In this document: one piece after another, positions 1,984-49,890 of the stretch
Layout of the letters: every line of letters starts with the position of its first letter
How positions within the stretch are numbered: the stretch's first letter is position 1
From: Candidatus Kapaibacterium sp.
Lineage (GTDB): Bacteria; Bacteroidota; Ignavibacteria; Kapaibacteriales; UBA2268
DNA: 64,000 nt
Reading direction: 5' to 3'
Assembly: GCA_026418625.1 (NCBI GenBank)
Contig: JAOABA010000022.1
Coordinates: 10,572-74,571, forward strand
Notes under the pieces: model-generated
Told to the model about the DNA's origin: nothing
Seen by the model: the letters and a program-made list of their open reading frames with translations, nothing else
Database searches by the model: none
Program-made: the position numbers and the translations under genes

Positions 1984-3465
1984 ATGAGTGAAAAAACAAG
2001 CACTGGAAAAAAAATTTTTTATATCGTTTTATTTCTTGCAACAGTCGTTATTGTATTCATATTAGGTTTACTTGCAGCTTCGATTTTCGAAAGGAGAGGT
2101 GAATCGGTAGCTCGTCTTGAACCCGTTAAAGAAATTGCCGAATGGGAACCAAGGAATGAGGTTTGGGGTGAAAATTACCCACGTGAATACGAAACATATA
2201 GAAAAACGCTTGACACAGGTTTTCGAAGCAAATATGCCGGCTCGGCTACCATAGATTACTTAGAAGATTATCCTGATTTAGTTGTTCTTTGGGCTGGTTA
2301 TCTGTTTTCAAGAGATTTCAAGCAAGCCCGTGGTCATGCTTATGCTATTAAAGATATCCGTCAAACGTTAAGAACTGGCGGGGTTGAATTCAGTCCTCAA
2401 CCCGGCACTTGTTGGTCCTGCAAAAGCACTGATGTTCCAAGGCTAATTCAATCAATGGGCGCCGAAGCCTTTTATAAATCCAAGTGGTCTGATTTGGGCG
2501 ATCAGGTCGTCAATCCAATCGGATGTCAAGACTGCCACGACCCCAAAACAATGGATTTAAGAATTACCAGACCTGCCTTGATTGAAGCTCTCGAAAGGCA
2601 GGGCAAAAAAATGAAAGATATTACACATCAAGAGATGCGATCGCTTGTTTGTGCACAATGTCACGTGGAATATTATTTCAAAGGTCCTGATAAATATTTG
2701 ACTTTTCCGTGGGACAAAGGCTTTAGTGCTGATTCAATGGAGTCATATTATAATGAAATTGCTTTCAAGGATTGGGAACATAAGCTCAGCAAAGCACCAA
2801 TGCTCAAAGCTCAACATCCCGATTATGAGTTGTATATGACCGGTATTCACGCTGCAAGGGGTGTTTCCTGTGCTGATTGTCATATGCCTTATAAAGTCGA
2901 AGGTGGGGTCAAATTTACTGATCATCACATTCAAAGCCCTCTAAATAATATTGCTAACTCCTGTCAGGTATGCCACAGACAAAGCGAAACACAATTACTT
3001 AAAGATGTTTATGACCGTCAGGATAGAGTAGCTGAAATTAGAAAAATAGCTGAATACTCATTGAGAAAAGCACATCTTGAAGCTGAATTAGCTTGGAAAA
3101 ATGAAGCAAGTGAAGATGAGATGAAACCTATACTTGAACTAATTAGGTCAGCTCAATGGAGATGGGATTGGGTCGCTGCTGCTAATTCAGTTGGATTTCA
3201 CTCACCTGTAGAAGCTCTCAGGGTTCTTGGCACTGCTATTGAGAGATCCGAAAAAGCTCGTGGTTTGCTAAATGTTGTATTTACAAAAAGAGGTGTAAGT
3301 TTACCCGTAACTCTGCCGGATGTCGGAACTAAGCTGATAGCTCAAAAATATATCGGACTCGATATTGAAAAGATTTTGCAGGATAAGCTTAATTTCTTGC
3401 AGACTGTTGTTCCTGAATGGGACAAGAAAGCTAAGTCCCGTCAAGGAACTTTGCAGGAATATTAG
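1984..3465 (+). CDS. nrfA: Cytochrome c552 nitrite reductase catalytic subunit NrfA (pentaheme, ammonia-forming).
   Basis: CWSCK (the Lys-ligated active-site heme motif diagnostic of NrfA) plus four CxxCH (CQDCH, CAQCH, CADCH, CQVCH). A signal/TM segment is at the N-terminus. AAGAGG RBS 7 nt before the ATG at 1984; the track start at 1960 overlaps nrfH. Confidence 0.9.
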   Translation: MSEKTSTGKKIFYIVLFLATVVIVFILGLLAASIFERRGESVARLEPVKEIAEWEPRNEVWGENYPREYETYRKTLDTGFRSKYAGSATIDYLEDYPDLVVLWAGYLFSRDFKQARGHAYAIKDIRQTLRTGGVEFSPQPGTCWSCKSTDVPRLIQSMGAEAFYKSKWSDLGDQVVNPIGCQDCHDPKTMDLRITRPALIEALERQGKKMKDITHQEMRSLVCAQCHVEYYFKGPDKYLTFPWDKGFSADSMESYYNEIAFKDWEHKLSKAPMLKAQHPDYELYMTGIHAARGVSCADCHMPYKVEGGVKFTDHHIQSPLNNIANSCQVCHRQSETQLLKDVYDRQDRVAEIRKIAEYSLRKAHLEAELAWKNEASEDEMKPILELIRSAQWRWDWVAAANSVGFHSPVEALRVLGTAIERSEKARGLLNVVFTKRGVSLPVTLPDVGTKLIAQKYIGLDIEKILQDKLNFLQTVVPEWDKKAKSRQGTLQEY

Positions 3466-18725: not shown

Positions 18726-18800
18726 TGCACGGGTGGAAGGACTTGAACCCTCAGCCTACGGTTTTGGAGACCGCCGCTCTGCCAATTGAGCTACACCCGT
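18726..18800 (-). tRNA. tRNA-Trp (anticodon CCA).
   Basis: Hand-folded cloverleaf: acceptor ACGGGTG/CACCCGT, anticodon loop CTCCAAA, T-loop GGTTCAAGTCC. Confidence 0.8.
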
Positions 18801-18806
18801 AAAATC

Positions 18807-18881
<75 letters not shown>

Positions 18882-18885
18882 AGAG

Positions 18886-18960
18886 CGGAGCGGGAAACGG
18901 GGTTCGAACCCGCGACCCTCAGCTTGGGAAGCTGATGCTCTACCAGCTGAGCTACTCCCG
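18886..18960 (-). tRNA. tRNA-Gly (anticodon CCC).
   Basis: GCGGGAGTAGCTCAGCTGGTAGAGC...anticodon loop TTCCCAA...GGTTCGAACC. Confidence 0.8.
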
Positions 18961-18992
18961 CTTTTCAAAAACACACCATTATAAACAACTTG

Positions 18993-19065
18993 AGCGGGAG
19001 ACGAGGCTCGAACCCGCGACCCTCAGCTTGGAAGGCTGATGCTCTACCAACTGAGCTACTCCCGC
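18993..19065 (-). tRNA. tRNA-Gly (anticodon TCC).
   Basis: GCGGGAGTAGCTCAGTTGGTAGAGC...anticodon loop CTTCCAA...GGTTCGAGCC. Confidence 0.8.
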
Positions 19066-19079
19066 ATTTTTTCTCTTTG

Positions 19080-19163
19080 TGGGCAGGGAAGGATTCGAAC
19101 CTCCGTAGGGCTGAGCCCAGCAGATTTACAGTCTGCCCCGTTTAACCGCTTCGGTACCTACCC
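19080..19163 (-). tRNA. tRNA-Tyr (anticodon GTA), with a long variable arm.
   Basis: GGGTAGGTACCGAAGCGGTTAAACGGG...anticodon loop CTGTAAA...variable arm GGGCTCAGCCCTAC...GGTTCGAATCC. Confidence 0.8.
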
Positions 19164-37791: not shown

Positions 37792-40227
37792 TCAGATAGC
37801 TCTTAATTTAGCGTTAAATTTCTTCTCAACTTTGCCAATTATATTGTCAATAACAGTTGTGATTTCTTTTTCTTCGAGAGTGTGATCTTCAGAATTAAAT
37901 ACCATCGAGAAGGCAATGCTTTTCGTCCCTTCAGGAATATTTTTTCCTTTATATAAATCGAAAATTTCAAGGCTTTTTAGCAGTTTTCCACCTTCTTTAA
38001 TTATCTCTTCATACAATAAGTTGGCAGGTAGATTATCCTCCACAAGAAAAGCTAAATCCCTTAGAACCGGTGGATAAGGCGAAACCTTTTGATATTTGTT
38101 TTCCTTTTGCTCAATTTTTCTTAGCTCCGTCAGATTCAGCCTTAAAATGTAAACTGGATGTCTAATATCATATTTTTGCTGAAATTCCTTACTGATTTCT
38201 CCAATTTCACCAATTATTTTCTCATTTAAATAAATAGCAAGATGATTAGCGTTGAAAATCTTGCTCTGTCCATTCGAATTATTTAGTATCAAAGTTCCGA
38301 GATTGAAGAAATTCTTTAAATCTTCAAAAATTCCTTTTATATCATAAAAATCTACTAATCTTGGTTTTTCGTCCCATCGAGTAGGTGATATTTCGCCCGA
38401 AATAGCAACCATAAGCTCTTCGATTTCCAGCACATTATGAATGAATTCATCAGCTGACTCAGTCCTGTGGAAAGACTTGCCAATTTCGAAAATCCGAATA
38501 TTTGAGGTTCCAAGAGCATTATTCCTTCCAATTGTTTTCAGAAATGAGGGAACGAGGGAAGTCCTCATCATTGACAATTGTTCACCTAAAGGATTCGAAA
38601 TTTTGAATGGAGTCTCGCCCATTATCTCGGCTGACTCAGGATCAACAATGTTTTGTGTTATGACCTCATTAAATCCCGAATAAGTCAAAAATCTTTTAAT
38701 CTTTTCCCTGAATGGATTAACCTGCAATTTCTCAGGAACTCCTTTTCCTGAAAAATCAATATTGCTCGTAAAGTCAGGAGAAAGGTTATCATAATTATAT
38801 AACCTTGCAATTTCTTCAATTAAATCAATTTCGAGCGATATGTCAACACGGTAATTTGGAATTTCAACCTGAATTTGGTTTGCATCCTCCGATATAATAT
38901 TAATGCCAAGTGATTTTAGCAGAGATTTAATCGTTTCATTTGATATTTCCAAGCCAATAATGTCCTTAGCTCTTTGAAATCTTAAATTTATGACTGGTTT
39001 GGCTTTTTTGACAGGGTAAACATCCATTACACCGCTTTCAGGTTCACCTCCGCAAATTTCTGCAATGAGTTGAGTGGCTCTGTTCGAAGCATAAATGATA
39101 TTATCAATATCAACACCTCGCTCGAAGCGATATGATGACTCGCTTTGTATTCCAAGCTTTTTCGATGTCCGCCTAATGGAGGAGGGATTGAAATAAGCTG
39201 ATTCGATAAGAACATTAGTTGTATTGTCGTTAATCTCGCTGTTTAACCCACCCATAACACCACCGATTGCAACAGACCTTTCGCCGTCACATATCATTAA
39301 AACAGAACTGTCAAGTTGTCGCTCAGTGTTGTCAAGAGTAATAAATTTTTCAGCGTCATTCGCTGATTTAACAATTATCTTATTCCCTTTCAGCAAATCT
39401 AAATCAAAAGCGTGAAGTGGCTGCCCGCATTCGAGCAATATATAATTCGTTATATCAACTACATTGTTAATAGGTCTTTGCCCTAACATTTTCAATCTGT
39501 TTTTGAGCCATTGAGGTGATTCGCTTACCTTTACATTTCGTATAACCCTTGCAGTATAACGTGGGCAATTCTCAACATCAATAATTTCAACACTGACTGA
39601 GTCCTCTGATTTAGTGTCAGCTTCATTAAAATTAATTTTGGGGTATTTAATTGGAACTTCTTTTCCAAAATTATATGAAATATAAGCCGCTATCTCTCTT
39701 GCAATACCGATATGGCTCAAACAATCGGAGCGGTTTGGTGTTATTCCGACTTCAAATACGATATCATTTACTCCAAGATAATCCGCAAGGCTAATTCCAT
39801 CAGTTACTTCTTGCGGTAAAACCCAAATTCCGCTTTTATCTTCGCCCAGACCAAGCTCATATTCCGAACAAATCATACCTTCGGAAACAATGTTTCTAAC
39901 TGGTCTGGTTTCGAGCTTTAAGCCATTTACAGGAACGATGGCTCCGGGCAGACCCAAAATAACAGATTGACCTGCAGCGACATTCGATGCTCCACAAACA
40001 ACAGTTCTAACATCTTCGTTTATTTTAACCTTGCAAACGGATAATTTGTCGGCATTTGGATGTTTCTCCTTTTCCAATACCTTAGCCGTAAAAAAACCTT
40101 GATATTTCTCTGCATAATTTTCAACAGCATCTATCTCAAGCCCGAGCATTGTCAATATATCAGAAAGCTCGGAAACACTGAAATCAAAGTCTATTAATTC
40201 TCTAAGCCAATTATAAGAAACAAGCAT
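37792..40227 (-). CDS. pheT: Phenylalanine--tRNA ligase beta subunit.
   Basis: 811 aa; the N-terminus MLVSYNWLRELIDFDFSVSELSDILTMLGLE and the B3/4, B5 and FDX-ACB domain order. Confidence 0.92.
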   Translation of the reverse strand: MLVSYNWLRELIDFDFSVSELSDILTMLGLEIDAVENYAEKYQGFFTAKVLEKEKHPNADKLSVCKVKINEDVRTVVCGASNVAAGQSVILGLPGAIVPVNGLKLETRPVRNIVSEGMICSEYELGLGEDKSGIWVLPQEVTDGISLADYLGVNDIVFEVGITPNRSDCLSHIGIAREIAAYISYNFGKEVPIKYPKINFNEADTKSEDSVSVEIIDVENCPRYTARVIRNVKVSESPQWLKNRLKMLGQRPINNVVDITNYILLECGQPLHAFDLDLLKGNKIIVKSANDAEKFITLDNTERQLDSSVLMICDGERSVAIGGVMGGLNSEINDNTTNVLIESAYFNPSSIRRTSKKLGIQSESSYRFERGVDIDNIIYASNRATQLIAEICGGEPESGVMDVYPVKKAKPVINLRFQRAKDIIGLEISNETIKSLLKSLGINIISEDANQIQVEIPNYRVDISLEIDLIEEIARLYNYDNLSPDFTSNIDFSGKGVPEKLQVNPFREKIKRFLTYSGFNEVITQNIVDPESAEIMGETPFKISNPLGEQLSMMRTSLVPSFLKTIGRNNALGTSNIRIFEIGKSFHRTESADEFIHNVLEIEELMVAISGEISPTRWDEKPRLVDFYDIKGIFEDLKNFFNLGTLILNNSNGQSKIFNANHLAIYLNEKIIGEIGEISKEFQQKYDIRHPVYILRLNLTELRKIEQKENKYQKVSPYPPVLRDLAFLVEDNLPANLLYEEIIKEGGKLLKSLEIFDLYKGKNIPEGTKSIAFSMVFNSEDHTLEEKEITTVIDNIIGKVEKKFNAKLRAI

Positions 40228-40322
40228 AAAAAAATAATATAAGTAATTAAAAGAATTGCAAATTAGTCAATTTAGATGAAATTTTTATTACCAAATTCCT
40301 CCAAGAAAAAATTGGGAATAAA

Positions 40323-40531
40323 TTTACTATGTCCGTCTTGGTGATTGGGTGGGGAAGTTTGTCAAAATTGAATAGCAACTACTTTCAAGTAGTGGAGAAA
40401 TAAATCATTTTTAAAGGTGCTTTACTGTAGAAACAACATCCCAGTCTGTGCAACAAAAGATGTCCTACACCTTTGAGGTGTAGGACATCTGAAAAATAGC
40501 TTTTTTGTCACTCTGAACGAAGTGAAGAGTC
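40323..40531 (+). repeat. Copy 1 of a ~205-bp hairpin-rich dispersed intergenic element (R element).
   Basis: About 90% identical to 40733-40936. It contains the 13-bp stem hairpin GATGTCCTACACC-TTTGA-GGTGTAGGACATC (40459-40489) and the hairpin ACTACTT-TCA-AGTAGT. Confidence 0.85.
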
Positions 40532-40663
40532 AATAATAATTCAATGACTTATGTGATATGGATTCTTCGCCTTCGGCTCCTAATAACTCCTTTTTACACA
40601 GCCTCGCATACAGGAATCTGAATTCATGATTTTCAACATCCTTTGCGAATTTGTTTTATCCAT

Positions 40664-40687
40664 AGAGACACAGAATTCTGTGTCTCT
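40664..40687. repeat. Perfect 24-bp palindrome between the two R-element copies.
   Basis: AGAGACACAGAA|TTCTGTGTCTCT, read directly from the sequence. Confidence 0.85.
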
Positions 40688-40732
40688 ACAGAGGATTGAT
40701 GTTTCAAATTTGCCATCAGGGCTTTACTATGT

Positions 40733-40936
40733 CCGTCTTCATGATTGGGTGGGGAAGTTTGTCAAAATTGAATAGCCACTACTTTTAAGTAGTGGAGAAA
40801 AAAATCATTTTTAAAGGTGCTTTCCGTTAGAACAGACTCCTCTTTCCGTGCAAAAAAGATGTCCTACACCTCTAAGGTGTAGGACATCTGAATAAATAGT
40901 ATTTTCGTAACACTTCACTTCGTTCAGAGTGACAAA
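40733..40936 (+). repeat. Copy 2 of the R element.
   Basis: Same order of motifs as copy 1. The hairpin at 40858-40888 keeps the identical 13-bp stem but carries a different loop (TCTAA). The terminal 21-nt segment (40913-40933) is the exact reverse complement of 40507-40527 in copy 1. Confidence 0.85.
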
Positions 40937-40970
40937 GAATCATTTTTTATACTTTTTACACAGCCTAAGA

Positions 40971-41195
40971 GGCAGGAGTTTTAGAGAATACAAAAGATTC
41001 CTGTTTGCACAGGAATGACGATGATTTTGACGGTGTCACTCCTGCGAAGGCAGGAGTTTTAAAGAACACAAAAGATTCCTGTTTGCACAGGAATGACGAT
41101 GATTTTGACGGTGTCACTCCTGCGAAGGCAGGAGTCTTAGAGTAATGAAGAGATTCCTGTCTCCACAGGAATGACAGGGAAGTTGGGGAAATCTC
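40971..41195 (+). repeat. Tandem direct repeat: 78-bp unit x 2.7, each unit with two hairpins.
   Basis: Units begin at 40971, 41049 and 41127 (GGCAGGAGTTTTAGAG...). The inner hairpin ATTCCTGT-TTGC-ACAGGAAT and the unit-junction hairpin CACTCCTGC-GAAG-GCAGGAGT(G) are both present. The third unit is diverged, with loop CTCC on a conserved stem. Confidence 0.85.
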
Positions 41196-41209
41196 TTAAT
41201 TAACAGTTA

Positions 41210-41500
41210 TTATTCTCCAAGAAGATATCTTGTAATTTCTTCCCATTCCTCTTCGAAAGTAGTTTTTGGTTTTGGACGTCCTGCAATGGAATACCAATAG
41301 GATGCATTCCATTCATTGGGCTCTTTTCTGTGAAGATAGGCATGAACCCAAGCAGCAGTTTTCGTATTCATTGCTTGAACAATATTATGAGCCTTGTCCC
41401 AGTTTCCTTGTGCTTCAAACCAAAGTGCCACGAGTTCTTTGCTAATTCCCGCTGGTGGATTTTCTTGATTTAATGTAGATTTAAATTCCTCAAATGTCAT
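41210..41500 (-). CDS. Hypothetical small protein (96 aa).
   Basis: The ORF begins 2 nt after the ispD stop and is Trp/His-rich. No recognisable family; coding status is plausible from operon context only. Confidence 0.4.
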   Translation of the reverse strand: MTFEEFKSTLNQENPPAGISKELVALWFEAQGNWDKAHNIVQAMNTKTAAWVHAYLHRKEPNEWNASYWYSIAGRPKPKTTFEEEWEEITRYLLGE

Positions 41501-47659: not shown

Positions 47660-48022
47660 GTGATTATGCTTGAAGCTTATTTGCCATTGATATTTATGTT
47701 GATATTCGGATTCGGAATAGCAGTTATTTTTCTGGTTCTATCTGAATGGCTTGGTGCAAGGAGAATTACAAAAGAAAAGCAAACAACTTATGAGAGCGGA
47801 ATGCAACCTTTCAGGACTGCAAGAGACAGATTCTCAGTTAAGTTCTATCTTGTTGCAATGAGTTTTATAGTATTTGATATCGAGGTTGTATTTCTCTATC
47901 CTTGGGCTGTTCAGTTTAAAATGCTAAGTCCCGAAGCAATTATTGCTATGTTCATCTTCATCGCAATATTGTTTGCCGGATATTTTTATGAATTAAGAAA
48001 GGGAGGAATAGAATGGCAATAA
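47660..48022 (+). CDS. nuoA: NADH-quinone oxidoreductase subunit A.
   Basis: 120 aa, three TM helices, conserved YESGM and [12 protein letters not shown]. Confidence 0.88.
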
Positions 48023-48564
48023 ATGCATTAGAAAGAGATGGTTTTCTTACCACAACGGTAGAAAACGTTATTAAATGGGCACAAAAAAATTCTTTGTGGC
48101 CTATGCCGCTGGGTATATCCTGCTGTGCCATTGAGATGATGGCATTTGCCTCGCCAAGATTCGATGTTTCAAGATTTGGTTCGGAAGTTTTCAGGATGTC
48201 CCCAAGACAATCTGATTTACTGATAGTTGCCGGAACAGTTACTTACAAAATGTCTTGGGTTGTCCGTAAAATTTATGACCAGATGCCTGATCCCAAATGG
48301 GTGATTTCAATGGGGGTCTGTGCATCAACTGGTGGTATGTTCCGCAGCTATTCAGTTGTTCAAGGGATTGATCAGTTCCTTCCGGTTGATGCTTATGTTT
48401 CGGGGTGTCCCCCAAGACCAGAGGCTCTAATCAAAGCCCTTATGCTTATTCAGGAAAAAGTTCAGAAAGCACATAAACCAGATCTATTCAATTTCGGAAA
48501 GAATGTTTCTCCAACACCTGTTCAGAAACCTTTCCCGTCAAAACTGACTGAAGTGCACGTTTAA
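48013..48564 (+). CDS. nuoB: NADH-quinone oxidoreductase subunit B (N2 cluster subunit).
   Basis: CCAIEMM, GxCxxxGG ([11 protein letters not shown]) and VSGCPPRPE Fe-S ligand motifs. Confidence 0.9.
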
Positions 48565-48705
48565 AGCATTGATAAAATCACAGAATATAAATCTTAAAGG
48601 GATGTTTGTTCTAATATTTGGATAAACATCCTTTTTTGTTATAAATTAAGACCACCTCTTCTTCTTCCCTTTTTCACATTCCTGTGACGGCTGAAATATG
48701 AAATC

Positions 48706-48960
48706 AGGCTTTAAGGGAAGTTTGTAATGATTGAATAGCCACTTCTTTTAAGTAGTGGGTAAAAAAAATATTTCCAATAATGCCTTCGGTTAGAATAGAC
48801 AACCCTTTTTGTGTAACAAAAGATGTCCCACACCTCTAAGGTGTAGGACATCTGAAAAGATAGTATTTTTGTCACTCTTCACTGAGTTCAGAGTGACAAA
48901 CAACCACTTTTTATGCTTTTTACACAGCCTCATGCACAGAAATGACTTTGAAAGTGCAAT
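48706..48960 (+). repeat. Copy 3 of the R element plus a degenerate 78-bp-type unit, in the convergent intergenic region after nuoB.
   Basis: Same motif order as 40323-40531, but it lacks the first ~28 nt. The hairpin at 48822-48852 has one mismatch in its stem. It is followed by TTTTTACACAGCCT and a degenerate unit, as at the 40.9 kb locus. Confidence 0.8.
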
Positions 48961-49041: not shown

Positions 49042-49890
49042 TTACTTCCTCCTGAAAACAGCGTCAGAGCGAAATTCGAGCTTGGAATCAATTGTAGTCA
49101 ATCGAGTATTTTTCAGTTGAATTTCATAAGGAACTTGCTCCATTTGGTTAGAACCTGCTTTTTTTGATGGCTTTGGAAATTGAACTTCTGTATTGATTGC
49201 TATAGGAACTGCCATAGGTTTCATTATATCTGCGAATTCAAGCTGAGAATCATAACCCCAAGGAATTTTCCACTCAAGCAATTTGAAAAAGAACTTTGTC
49301 TTTAAAGTCAGTTTTGCCGGACGAGGCTTAAGAACTATATATCCGCTGTCAGTGCCTTCAAGATTGAACGAAACCGGTTCGTTCAGGTAAATTTGAACTT
49401 CAGGTGAAATAGAAGCAGGAACGCCGATATATTTACCTGAAGCGCTGATAGCTCCCTTCCCCTCTATTTCAATTTTTCCCTCAATAATATTCTTATCAAA
49501 TTTAGAAAAATTTATTGCTTTGATATTAACCGAAAAACTTCCAGTATCAATATTGATGTAGTTTGTGTAGTTGATACCTAAAACCGATTTATCCTCTTTA
49601 ACCACATTTTTCGATTGCCGGAAAATAATCTTAATATCATCTTCTCTTCTATTGGAAAGAGCTTTCAATATAGTATTTAAAGGATTAACACTTAAACGAA
49701 GGATAAAATCATTCCCTGAGGGTAGATTTTTTGTTCTGTCATCTATGTTTCTATCAGCTAAATTGATTTGAGGTTGATAAAAATCAATCAATTTTTGTGA
49801 TTGTTCAATTGTCGGCAAGTCAATACTTTTACATCCAAACAAAGTGATAATAATTGATATGAATATAAAAATTAAACTGTAACTTTTCAT
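49042..49890 (-). CDS. Hypothetical lipoprotein.
   Basis: Signal peptide with lipobox LFGC. No recognisable domain. Confidence 0.45.
   Translation of the reverse strand: MKSYSLIFIFISIIITLFGCKSIDLPTIEQSQKLIDFYQPQINLADRNIDDRTKNLPSGNDFILRLSVNPLNTILKALSNRREDDIKIIFRQSKNVVKEDKSVLGINYTNYINIDTGSFSVNIKAINFSKFDKNIIEGKIEIEGKGAISASGKYIGVPASISPEVQIYLNEPVSFNLEGTDSGYIVLKPRPAKLTLKTKFFFKLLEWKIPWGYDSQLEFADIMKPMAVPIAINTEVQFPKPSKKAGSNQMEQVPYEIQLKNTRLTTIDSKLEFRSDAVFRRK

Follow-up and report, generated by a model that had tools for sequence, protein, structure and literature searches.

A 982-bp gap upstream of pheT in a Kapaibacterium contig is probably a transcription-unit boundary filled with known kinds of repeat

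We analysed a 64,000-nt stretch (the window) of contig JAOABA010000022.1 from Candidatus Kapaibacterium sp., and in it the 982-bp gap (40228-41209) between pheT and a 96-aa open reading frame (ORF), ORF96. The gap is probably the boundary between an ispD-ORF96 unit and the pheT operon, filled with repeat debris of known kinds, and not one device. It holds the pheT leader, truncated 3′ ends of a type IX secretion system (T9SS) cargo gene with their downstream hairpins (here called cassettes), and repetitive extragenic palindromes (REPs) of two sorts, one resembling those of REP-associated tyrosine transposases (RAYTs) and one tagged with CGTC. The features of the locus, with the third cassette copy found elsewhere in the window, are as follows.

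37792-40227, minus strand: pheT, with all diagnostic Pfam domains, including B3_4, B5 and FDX-ACB
40228-40311 (84 nt), minus strand: pheT promoter/5′ leader
40325-40375, plus strand: cassette copy 1, a pseudogene fragment of the T9SS C-terminal domain (translation YYVRLGDWVGKFVKIE, then stop), with a stop codon just upstream
40376-40395, plus strand: hairpin 1, copy 1 (CAACTACTTTCAAGTAGTGG), which natively follows genes of the T9SS cargo family
40458-40490: RAYT-type REP, copy 1 (AGATGTCCTACACCT TTG AGGTGTAGGACATCT), with a 15-bp stem and a 3-nt loop, terminator-like on the minus strand
40507-40531, plus strand: GTCACTCT...GAGTC hairpin module, copy 1, in the opposite orientation to copies 2 and 3
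40560-40622, plus strand: decayed REP-like remnants, then the cassette right end TTTTTACACAGCCT and half a CGTC REP (ACAGGAATC)
40626-40775, plus strand: cassette copy 2, a longer pseudogene fragment of 49 codons plus stop (translation MIFNILCEFVLSIETQNSVSLQRIDVSNLPSGLYYVRLHDWVGKFVKIE, then stop)
40663-40688: perfect palindrome of 13+13 = 26 nt (TAGAGACACAGAATTCTGTGTCTCTA), in the C-terminal-domain pseudogene frame (IETQNSVSL)
40776-40795, plus strand: hairpin 1, copy 2 (CCACTACTTTTAAGTAGTGG)
40857-40889: RAYT-type REP, copy 2
40907-40933, minus strand: GTCACTCT module, copy 2
40970-41203: cluster resembling bacterial interspersed mosaic elements (BIMEs) and Neisseria intergenic mosaic elements (NIMEs), made of 2.6 tandem copies of a 78-nt head-to-head dimer of CGTC REPs
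40997-41019 (minus), 41035-41057 (plus), 41075-41097 (minus), 41113-41135 (plus) and 41153-41175 (minus): the five CGTC REPs
41210-41500, minus strand: ORF96, without a Pfam match
48674-48946, plus strand: third, orphan cassette copy, in another intergenic region
48821-48853: RAYT-type REP, copy 3, in the orphan cassette

An earlier note on this DNA had described a gap of about 980 bp without a plausible ORF, lying in a compact co-directional operon and holding two copies of a ~205-bp element, a 24-bp perfect palindrome, 2.7 tandem copies of a 78-bp unit and at least seven strong hairpins. Most of this description stood. The sole ORF of at least 50 aa in the gap (40965-41117, GTG start) sits on the tandem repeat. 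The two element copies lie 399-400 nt apart and can be aligned to about 240 nt (40323-40457 versus 40723-40857, 87% identity; 40455-40496 versus 40854-40895, 93% identity), with the third copy at about 48.67-48.95 kb. The palindrome is real but 26 nt long; it occurs once in the window, with 0 expected in shuffles, and was not found in any fetched locus. The 78-nt period was recovered with 2.6 copies (40970-41175, 91% matches). We counted at least 12 hairpins, namely two of hairpin 1, two 15-bp REPs, the palindrome, two GTCACTCT modules and five CGTC REPs, and the minus-strand RNA fold of 40312-41209 reached −284.8 kcal/mol (shuffles −195.8 ± 6.6; z = −13.6). The gap is indeed more than a plain promoter/terminator spacer, its hairpins belonging to multi-copy, dispersed DNA repeat families. 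In the ORF list, the genes between 31.6 and 43.5 kb do stand close together on the minus strand; they do not form one conserved operon, however, and the synteny with relatives ends 84 nt upstream of pheT.

The comparison set comprised only seven closer pheT relatives, with 76-92% identity (loci L114 to L120; L numbers are our labels for loci). The closest pheT proteins with a named taxon, about 50-54% identical, came from Ignavibacteriae, Kapabacteria or Bacteroidota metagenome-assembled genomes (MAGs). Gene order downstream of pheT was syntenic in all seven relatives, while the upstream neighbour and the gap size varied.

L115: GWxTD-IspD-ORF95 upstream, as in the window; gap of 314 bp
L114: a different gene upstream, on the opposite strand; gap of 610 bp
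L116, L117, L119 and L120: glycosyltransferase 9 upstream; gap of 172 bp
L118: a 440-aa gene upstream; gap of 776 bp

In the window and the relatives, the gap is between 172 and 982 bp long. Just one stretch of it is conserved throughout the close relatives, namely the 84-nt leader, which stands directly upstream of pheT in L114-L120 at 87-90% identity whatever the upstream gene; a consensus scan placed a promoter-like TTTGCA-17-TATTAT within it at 40262-40234. Because the upstream neighbour and gap size vary, the order downstream of pheT is syntenic and only the leader is conserved, the gap, judged by gene order, is a transcription-unit boundary and a synteny breakpoint, not the interior of a conserved operon. 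The junction of leader and cassette copy 1 is also present in L115 and, in decayed form, in L114, and therefore predates the split of those genomes. Another C-terminal-domain remnant (AYFVRLGNRAGRFIKI, then stop), followed by a terminator hairpin, was noticed in the pheT-upstream gap of L118 (9225-9400, reverse strand); with it, cargo-gene ends recur at the pheT-upstream breakpoint.

What had been seen as a 205-bp element is, by its translation and homology, the truncated 3′ end of a T9SS cargo gene, encoding the C-terminal sorting domain, together with downstream hairpins; the first reading had missed that it opens with coding sequence. An intact BNR/Por_Secre_tail gene (L116:4546-6027) is 71% identical in DNA, at its 3′ end and flank, to positions 40686-40799; this gene ends in IKIFNLLGECVLSV...LLRIDVSCLPAGVYFVRVGDWVGRFVKI and a stop and is followed by the same hairpin as hairpin 1, CCACTACTTTCAAGTAGTGG. 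Hairpin 1 also lies 3′ of the stop codon in intact genes of L116, L127 and L138, and cassette copy 2 is 75-88% identical to cassette copies in L127, L138 and L180. No intact Por_Secre_tail ORF was found at the window cassettes, which retain 7-49 terminal codons: 49 are readable in copy 2, 16 in copy 1 and 7 in copy 3, with stop codons preceding each. The third copy lies between a nuoB-like gene (48013-48564, plus) and an ORF on the minus strand (49042-49890). It consists of a decayed C-terminal-domain end (GKFVMIE, stop at 48736-48738), then hairpin 1, the REP, the GTCACTCT module (48871-48897) and a right end with a half REP. The remnants at 40560-40622 in copy 1 have a decayed counterpart in L114.

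The same arrangement recurred outside the window. Our metagenome scan for the CGTC REP drew several contigs from the metagenome of L116 and two other loci (L228, L149). In the metagenome loci, the cassette recurs as the last ~60 codons, hairpin 1, further hairpins and a REP array. Three intact cassette-bearing paralogs (474, 493 and 711 aa) have alignable bodies only 44-60% identical, yet their last ~60 codons and 3′ flanks are near-identical. Four 5′-truncated orphan cassette fragments were also present in these loci. Because the paralog ends are near-identical despite diverged bodies, and because orphan fragments accompany them, the cassette is, on these alignments, the homogenised 3′ end of a cargo-gene family, of which orphan remnants are common.

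In the cassette flanks of L127, L138, L180 and L228 (e.g., L138 reverse strand ~3180-3440) we also noted a conserved A+T-rich insert of about 250 nt, situated between a CGTC REP and a REP array. Its inverted ends (AAACCTTAGTAGAAG / CTTCTACTAAGGTTT) give it the look of a miniature inverted-repeat transposable element.

Each cassette copy in the window carries one 33-nt hairpin of consensus AGAT-GTCCYACACCT-NNN-AGGTGTAGGAC-ATCT. We scanned for its core with one genome per species and found it exactly in at least 113 Bacteroidota loci (L001-L113), from Cyclobacteriaceae, Chitinophagaceae, Cytophagales, Roseivirgaceae, Taibaiella, Flavihumibacter and others. The hairpin is the sole sequence common to the window and these genome loci. 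MAG UR.bin11 holds dozens of copies and other MAGs several; in the UR.bin11 contigs (JAKIZN01) the 33-nt REP stands in a regular mosaic with several other conserved modules, denser than that of the window.

Covariation was looked for, and the stem proved to be kept paired by it. Across 112 distinct instances the loop is free and pairing ends exactly after 15 bp. Arm position 5 covaries (T-A in 89, C-G in 17), and the four pairs outside the core are variable yet complementary. Outer pair 2 is A-T in 48 instances and G-C in 52, with Watson-Crick pairing in 107 of 112, compared with 47.7 in shuffles.

At several of these loci (L014, L015, L019, L061, L067 and others), pairs of the hairpin 630-690 nt apart flank an ORF of about 190 aa, which tblastn found in 13 of the at least 113 hairpin-selected loci. 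This ORF scored 24-28 bits against Pfam Y1_Tnp (gathering cutoff 23) and matched NCBIfam REP_Tyr_transpos over its full length at 66 bits, below the curated cutoff of 80. Its motifs are NHFH, YIHQNP and HSSF/YSSF. RAYT subclass 2.6 is characterised by NH[LIV]H ... YIH[QN]NP and a serine motif after the tyrosine (PMC6006769). YIHQNP fits this signature; NHFH is near but not exact, since its middle F falls outside the printed set (PMC6006769 table). The Bacteroidetes RAYTs of subclass 2.6 correspond to RAYT group 5, and their flanking hairpins have been described as "atypical" (Quentin et al. 2018, PMC6006769; Bertels et al. 2017). The canonical unpaired 5′ GT[AG]G foot was not found on our hairpin, where GTAG/CTAC lies inside the 15-bp stem; such a foot-less hairpin is in keeping with the atypical structures that subclass 2.6 is reported to have. 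On these sequence features, the 33-nt hairpin fits a RAYT-type REP and the Y1 gene that it flanks is RAYT-like, fitting Bacteroidetes subclass 2.6. A literature search with the REP core returned, among the matches listed, unrelated papers only. In a Cyclobacteriaceae MAG (L063, 5018-6503), a REP-flanked RAYT gene adjoins a GIY-YIG ORF.

The distal part of the gap is occupied by the CGTC REPs. The five modules fit GTCAYTCCTGY-N4-RCAGGART, for which 0.00 matches are expected. They alternate in orientation (− + − + −), their starts being alternately 38 and 40 nt apart in the 78-nt period, and their tags face each other over a 15-nt spacer. Each tag (tCGTCATTCC, gTGTCACTCC or cTGTCATTCC) includes an unpaired CGTC or TGTC. 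The a-type module has an 8-bp stem and a 4-nt loop (ATTCCTGT / GCAA or GGAG / ACAGGAAT), and in the b-type (ACTCCTGC / GAAG / GCAGGAGT) stem position 2 is C-G instead of T-A. The tail is CTT, TTT or CTC in the window and CCA or CTA in L116, the family consensus being CCA. The CGTC-1 family was defined by just these traits: a CGTC/TGTC tag, an 8-bp stem, a 4-nt loop, a short tail and head-to-head dimers (Di Nocera et al. 2013, PMC3733652). CGTC-1 was equated with Neisseria dRS3, and the super-family was recorded in Bacteroidetes, Chlorobi and other phyla (PMC3733652). SsnA, a 94-aa GIY-YIG nuclease, binds NTS, which contains dRS3, and cleaves it in single-stranded form (Chenal et al. 2025, PMC11893778), and NTS-related motifs, termed Ssn-related motifs (SRM), flank ssn genes in many bacteria (PMC11893778). 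The a-type REP agrees with the NTS consensus CGTCATTCCCGCGMAVGCGGGAATCYRG (PMC11893778) at 22 of 28 positions, and four stem differences form two compensated pairs.

L116 has this alternating array as well, at another locus (1040-1275) and with the compensated stems CCCGT/ACGGG and CCCAC/GTGGG, and further CGTC-REP arrays occur at other relative loci (L127, L138, L180). A called gene of 128 aa in L116 (992-1378), without a Pfam match, lies wholly on the array and is probably a false prediction due to the repeats. A metagenome scan with the a-type REP gave at least 120 loci (L121-L240). The exact 24-nt CGTC REP (GATTCCYGTTTGCACRGGAATGAC) stands on contigs of 28-64% G+C, and one REP sequence is therefore common to very different organisms. 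In 3 of the at least 120 REP-selected loci, the start of a small, single-domain GIY-YIG (Ssn-like) gene has the exact relative-type REP about 10 nt ahead of it; two of the three genes were confirmed as Pfam PF01541, and at least two have further REPs on their other side. Literature searches with translated REP motifs (IPAFAGMT and similar) yielded nothing useful.

A consensus scan of the gap found five sites of a hairpin followed by a T-run, all on the minus strand (1.0 ± 1.0 in shuffles), and no such site on the plus strand. They coincide with the three minus-strand CGTC REPs and both RAYT-type REPs of the gap. REP clusters elsewhere terminate or stabilise transcripts (PMC3733652). Since five gene-strand hairpins precede T-runs, the most likely role of the array is to terminate the ispD-ORF96 transcript, stabilise it and keep the pheT promoter insulated.

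Outward from pheT, the 84-nt leader is followed by two tandem, 5′-truncated 3′ cassettes of a lineage-specific kind and then by amplified CGTC-REP dimers of the dRS3/NTS type, the full cassette layout being the last cargo-gene codons, their own hairpin, a RAYT-type REP, a small hairpin and a half REP. Taken together, these observations suggest the following history. The REPs would behave as hairpins in single-stranded DNA, processed in trans by dedicated enzymes: an HUH Y1 transposase (RAYT subclass 2.6) would act on the 33-nt hairpin, and an Ssn-like GIY-YIG single-strand nuclease on the CGTC REPs. The cassette may spread across paralogous cargo genes by gene conversion, with decay and deletion leaving orphans, and the 400-bp and 78-bp periodicities may be local duplications between repeats. 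In an old rearrangement the pheT leader would have been joined to the truncated end of a cargo gene, which by then had CGTC REPs beside ORF96, a state that L115 shares; a second, longer cassette copy in the window lineage would then have given the 400-bp periodicity. Tandem copies 1 and 2 are 97% identical, which suggests that the REP dimer was triplicated recently.

Several points weigh against this account. Searches by regular expression, tblastn and phmmer found neither a RAYT nor a GIY-YIG gene across the 64-kb window and 124 kb of loci from relatives, and it is for this reason that trans-acting enzymes in this genome have to be assumed. The three RAYT-type REPs of the window all stand in one cassette context, and the hairpin was not found, with up to 4 substitutions allowed, in 124 kb of relatives' loci or in 670 kb of metagenome loci. 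These REPs may accordingly be passive passengers of cassette duplication and not products of a RAYT. The published degenerate SRM pattern, which matched the control NTS consensus and one site in the L116 array, gave 0 matches in the window, because the window stems are more A+T-rich (CCTGT/ACAGG). Termination is predicted from the consensus scan alone. Finally, the account explains neither the 26-nt palindrome nor the in-place inversion of one hairpin module: the GTCACTCT...AGAGTGAC module is inverted in copy 1 (40507-40531) relative to 40907-40933 and 48871-48897, with colinear flanks, as would follow if a small palindromic unit had either flipped in place or been inserted independently in reverse.

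As for the alternatives suggested earlier, the idea of a DNA-level recombination or mobile-element family was right in kind: one repeat family has at least 113 loci in genomes and the other at least 120 in metagenomes, and covariation keeps the stems paired. The families are not new, however. The earlier note knew of no such elements, which have already been described as CGTC REPs (PMC3733652), NTS/Ssn (PMC11893778) and RAYT 2.6 (PMC6006769).

A bolder reading, to which we give a rather small chance, is that the sorting domain with its REP-laden 3′ flank is a portable recombination cassette, copied among diverged T9SS cargo genes, with the REPs setting the end-points. If so, it would be a functional analogue of the repeat-bounded variable loci of Neisseria, and its REP hairpins would be targets of RAYT and an Ssn-type single-strand nuclease, orphan copies being left at operon boundaries.

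Alternatively, the ~240-400-bp cassette might be an active non-autonomous mobile element, its copies at 40.3, 40.7 and 48.7 kb being insertions. Three copies at two loci with 87-93% identity, orphan copies at several relative loci and a REP that a RAYT could recognise would agree with this. Yet neither terminal inverted repeats nor target duplications were observed, and the left ends are cut at differing points of the coding sequence (7, 16 and 49 codons here; open frames of 63-93 codons in relatives). We also considered that copy 3 had been inserted into a CGTC REP, with the two hairpin halves flanking it, and rejected this, since both the left flank and the apparent split hairpin proved in the alignment to be decayed coding sequence with homology to copy 2. 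Concerted evolution of paralog 3′ ends explains the identity. We regard a mobile cassette as improbable.

Slightly less likely still, and not supported by the data, is the earlier suggestion of a structured non-coding RNA locus, with the gap coding for at least one dedicated structured small RNA resembling FtrB. The FtrB model (RF02748) has a sub-threshold, full-length match at 41093-41208 (38.7 bits, E = 1.9e-4), FtrB is a real 115-nt Francisella transcript (PMC3091763), the fold of the gap is very stable (z = −13.6), and its stems are kept by compensatory changes between genomes. The score, however, falls well short of the gathering value of 66 bits, and the match runs via a CGTC-type REP hairpin that is also in the FtrB probe (PMC3091763), so that the resemblance reflects a shared REP, not orthology. 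No Rfam family reached its gathering score in the gap, where a search at E ≤ 10 gave sub-threshold matches only; in the whole window just five tRNAs did. Moreover, the locus is not conserved in relatives (gaps of 172, 314, 610 and 776 bp), no promoter-like site beyond chance was found, and the same units stand at unrelated loci on contigs of 28-64% G+C, the pattern of a DNA repeat and not of an orthologous RNA gene. The five tRNA genes are clustered at 18728-19163 of the window on the minus strand (Rfam tRNA, 58-74 bits).

It is very improbable that the repeats are a collapsed or mis-joined assembly artefact. Repeats of 78 and 400 bp are of a kind that short-read assemblers mishandle, and tandem copies 1 and 2 are 97% identical; nevertheless, the copies differ in an orderly way (68-97%), the cassettes are truncated 5′ at different points, one of them with an inverted module, and the junction of leader and cassette copy 1 recurs in the independent assemblies L115 and L114. 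That the hairpins form a cis-regulatory pheT leader of the attenuator or T-box type is next to impossible: aminoacyl-tRNA synthetase genes often have structured leaders and the array lies upstream of pheT, but no Rfam cis-regulatory family reached its threshold (PyrR, 23 bits versus 54), relatives with 172 bp upstream keep just the 84-nt leader, and the hairpins are dispersed repeats. Three other array types were dismissed without a dedicated test, namely a CRISPR array (no unique spacers between the units), an integron attC array (no integrase or cassette ORFs) and the template/variable repeat of a diversity-generating retroelement (copy differences not adenine-specific, no reverse transcriptase).

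On the reading of the gap as a boundary filled with repeat debris, the locus opens no new biological question, and is an ordinary, well-preserved case of a known phenomenon. It does place both REP systems, RAYT 2.6 hairpins and the CGTC/NTS type, in an Ignavibacteria/Kapabacteria-like lineage. The REP of subclass 2.6, formerly just "atypical", receives a sharp consensus (AGRT-GTCCYACACCT-NNN-AGGTGTRGGAC-AYCT), and the association of the REP with GIY-YIG genes is independently reproduced in metagenomes. REP arrays also attract false gene calls, such as the 128-aa "gene" of L116, and false predictions of non-coding RNA.

Each component of the gap can be set beside a known system. Like CGTC-1/NTS elements, the CGTC REPs have an unpaired tag, an 8-bp stem, a 4-nt loop and a short tail, and are multi-copy, dispersed and clustered as head-to-head dimers. 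They differ in their A+T-richer stems, in a b-type stem that starts with A-C instead of A-T, in a CTT/TTT tail where CCA is usual, and in that no Ssn gene is seen in the window. The cluster as a whole resembles the BIMEs of E. coli and the NIMEs of Neisseria, with evenly spaced alternating REPs, conserved linkers and tandem amplification, at an intergenic position at a gene 3′ end where such clusters can serve as terminator or mRNA stabiliser. It differs in its host, an uncultured organism of the FCB group that is Ignavibacteria/Kapabacteria-like, and in its admixture of gene-remnant cassettes, and it has no known binding of IHF, gyrase or Pol I.

The 33-nt hairpins match the RAYT REPtrons of subclass 2.6 in being paired around a ~190-aa Y1 HUH transposase, multi-copy in those genomes and free of an unpaired GT[AG]G foot. 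In contrast to these REPtrons, GTAG/CTAC lies in the stem, which is long and perfect (15 bp) and not "weak", and the window copies ride in one cassette, with no RAYT in the window or its relatives. FtrB shares with the gap a CGTC-type REP hairpin among other hairpins, and its model aligns over its full length to 41093-41208. As for the T9SS C-terminal sorting domain (PF18962, Por_Secre_tail), the cassette start translates to the end of this domain and is 71-88% identical in DNA to intact genes of relatives; compared with those genes, the window holds 7-49 codons after stop codons, that is, pseudogene fragments.

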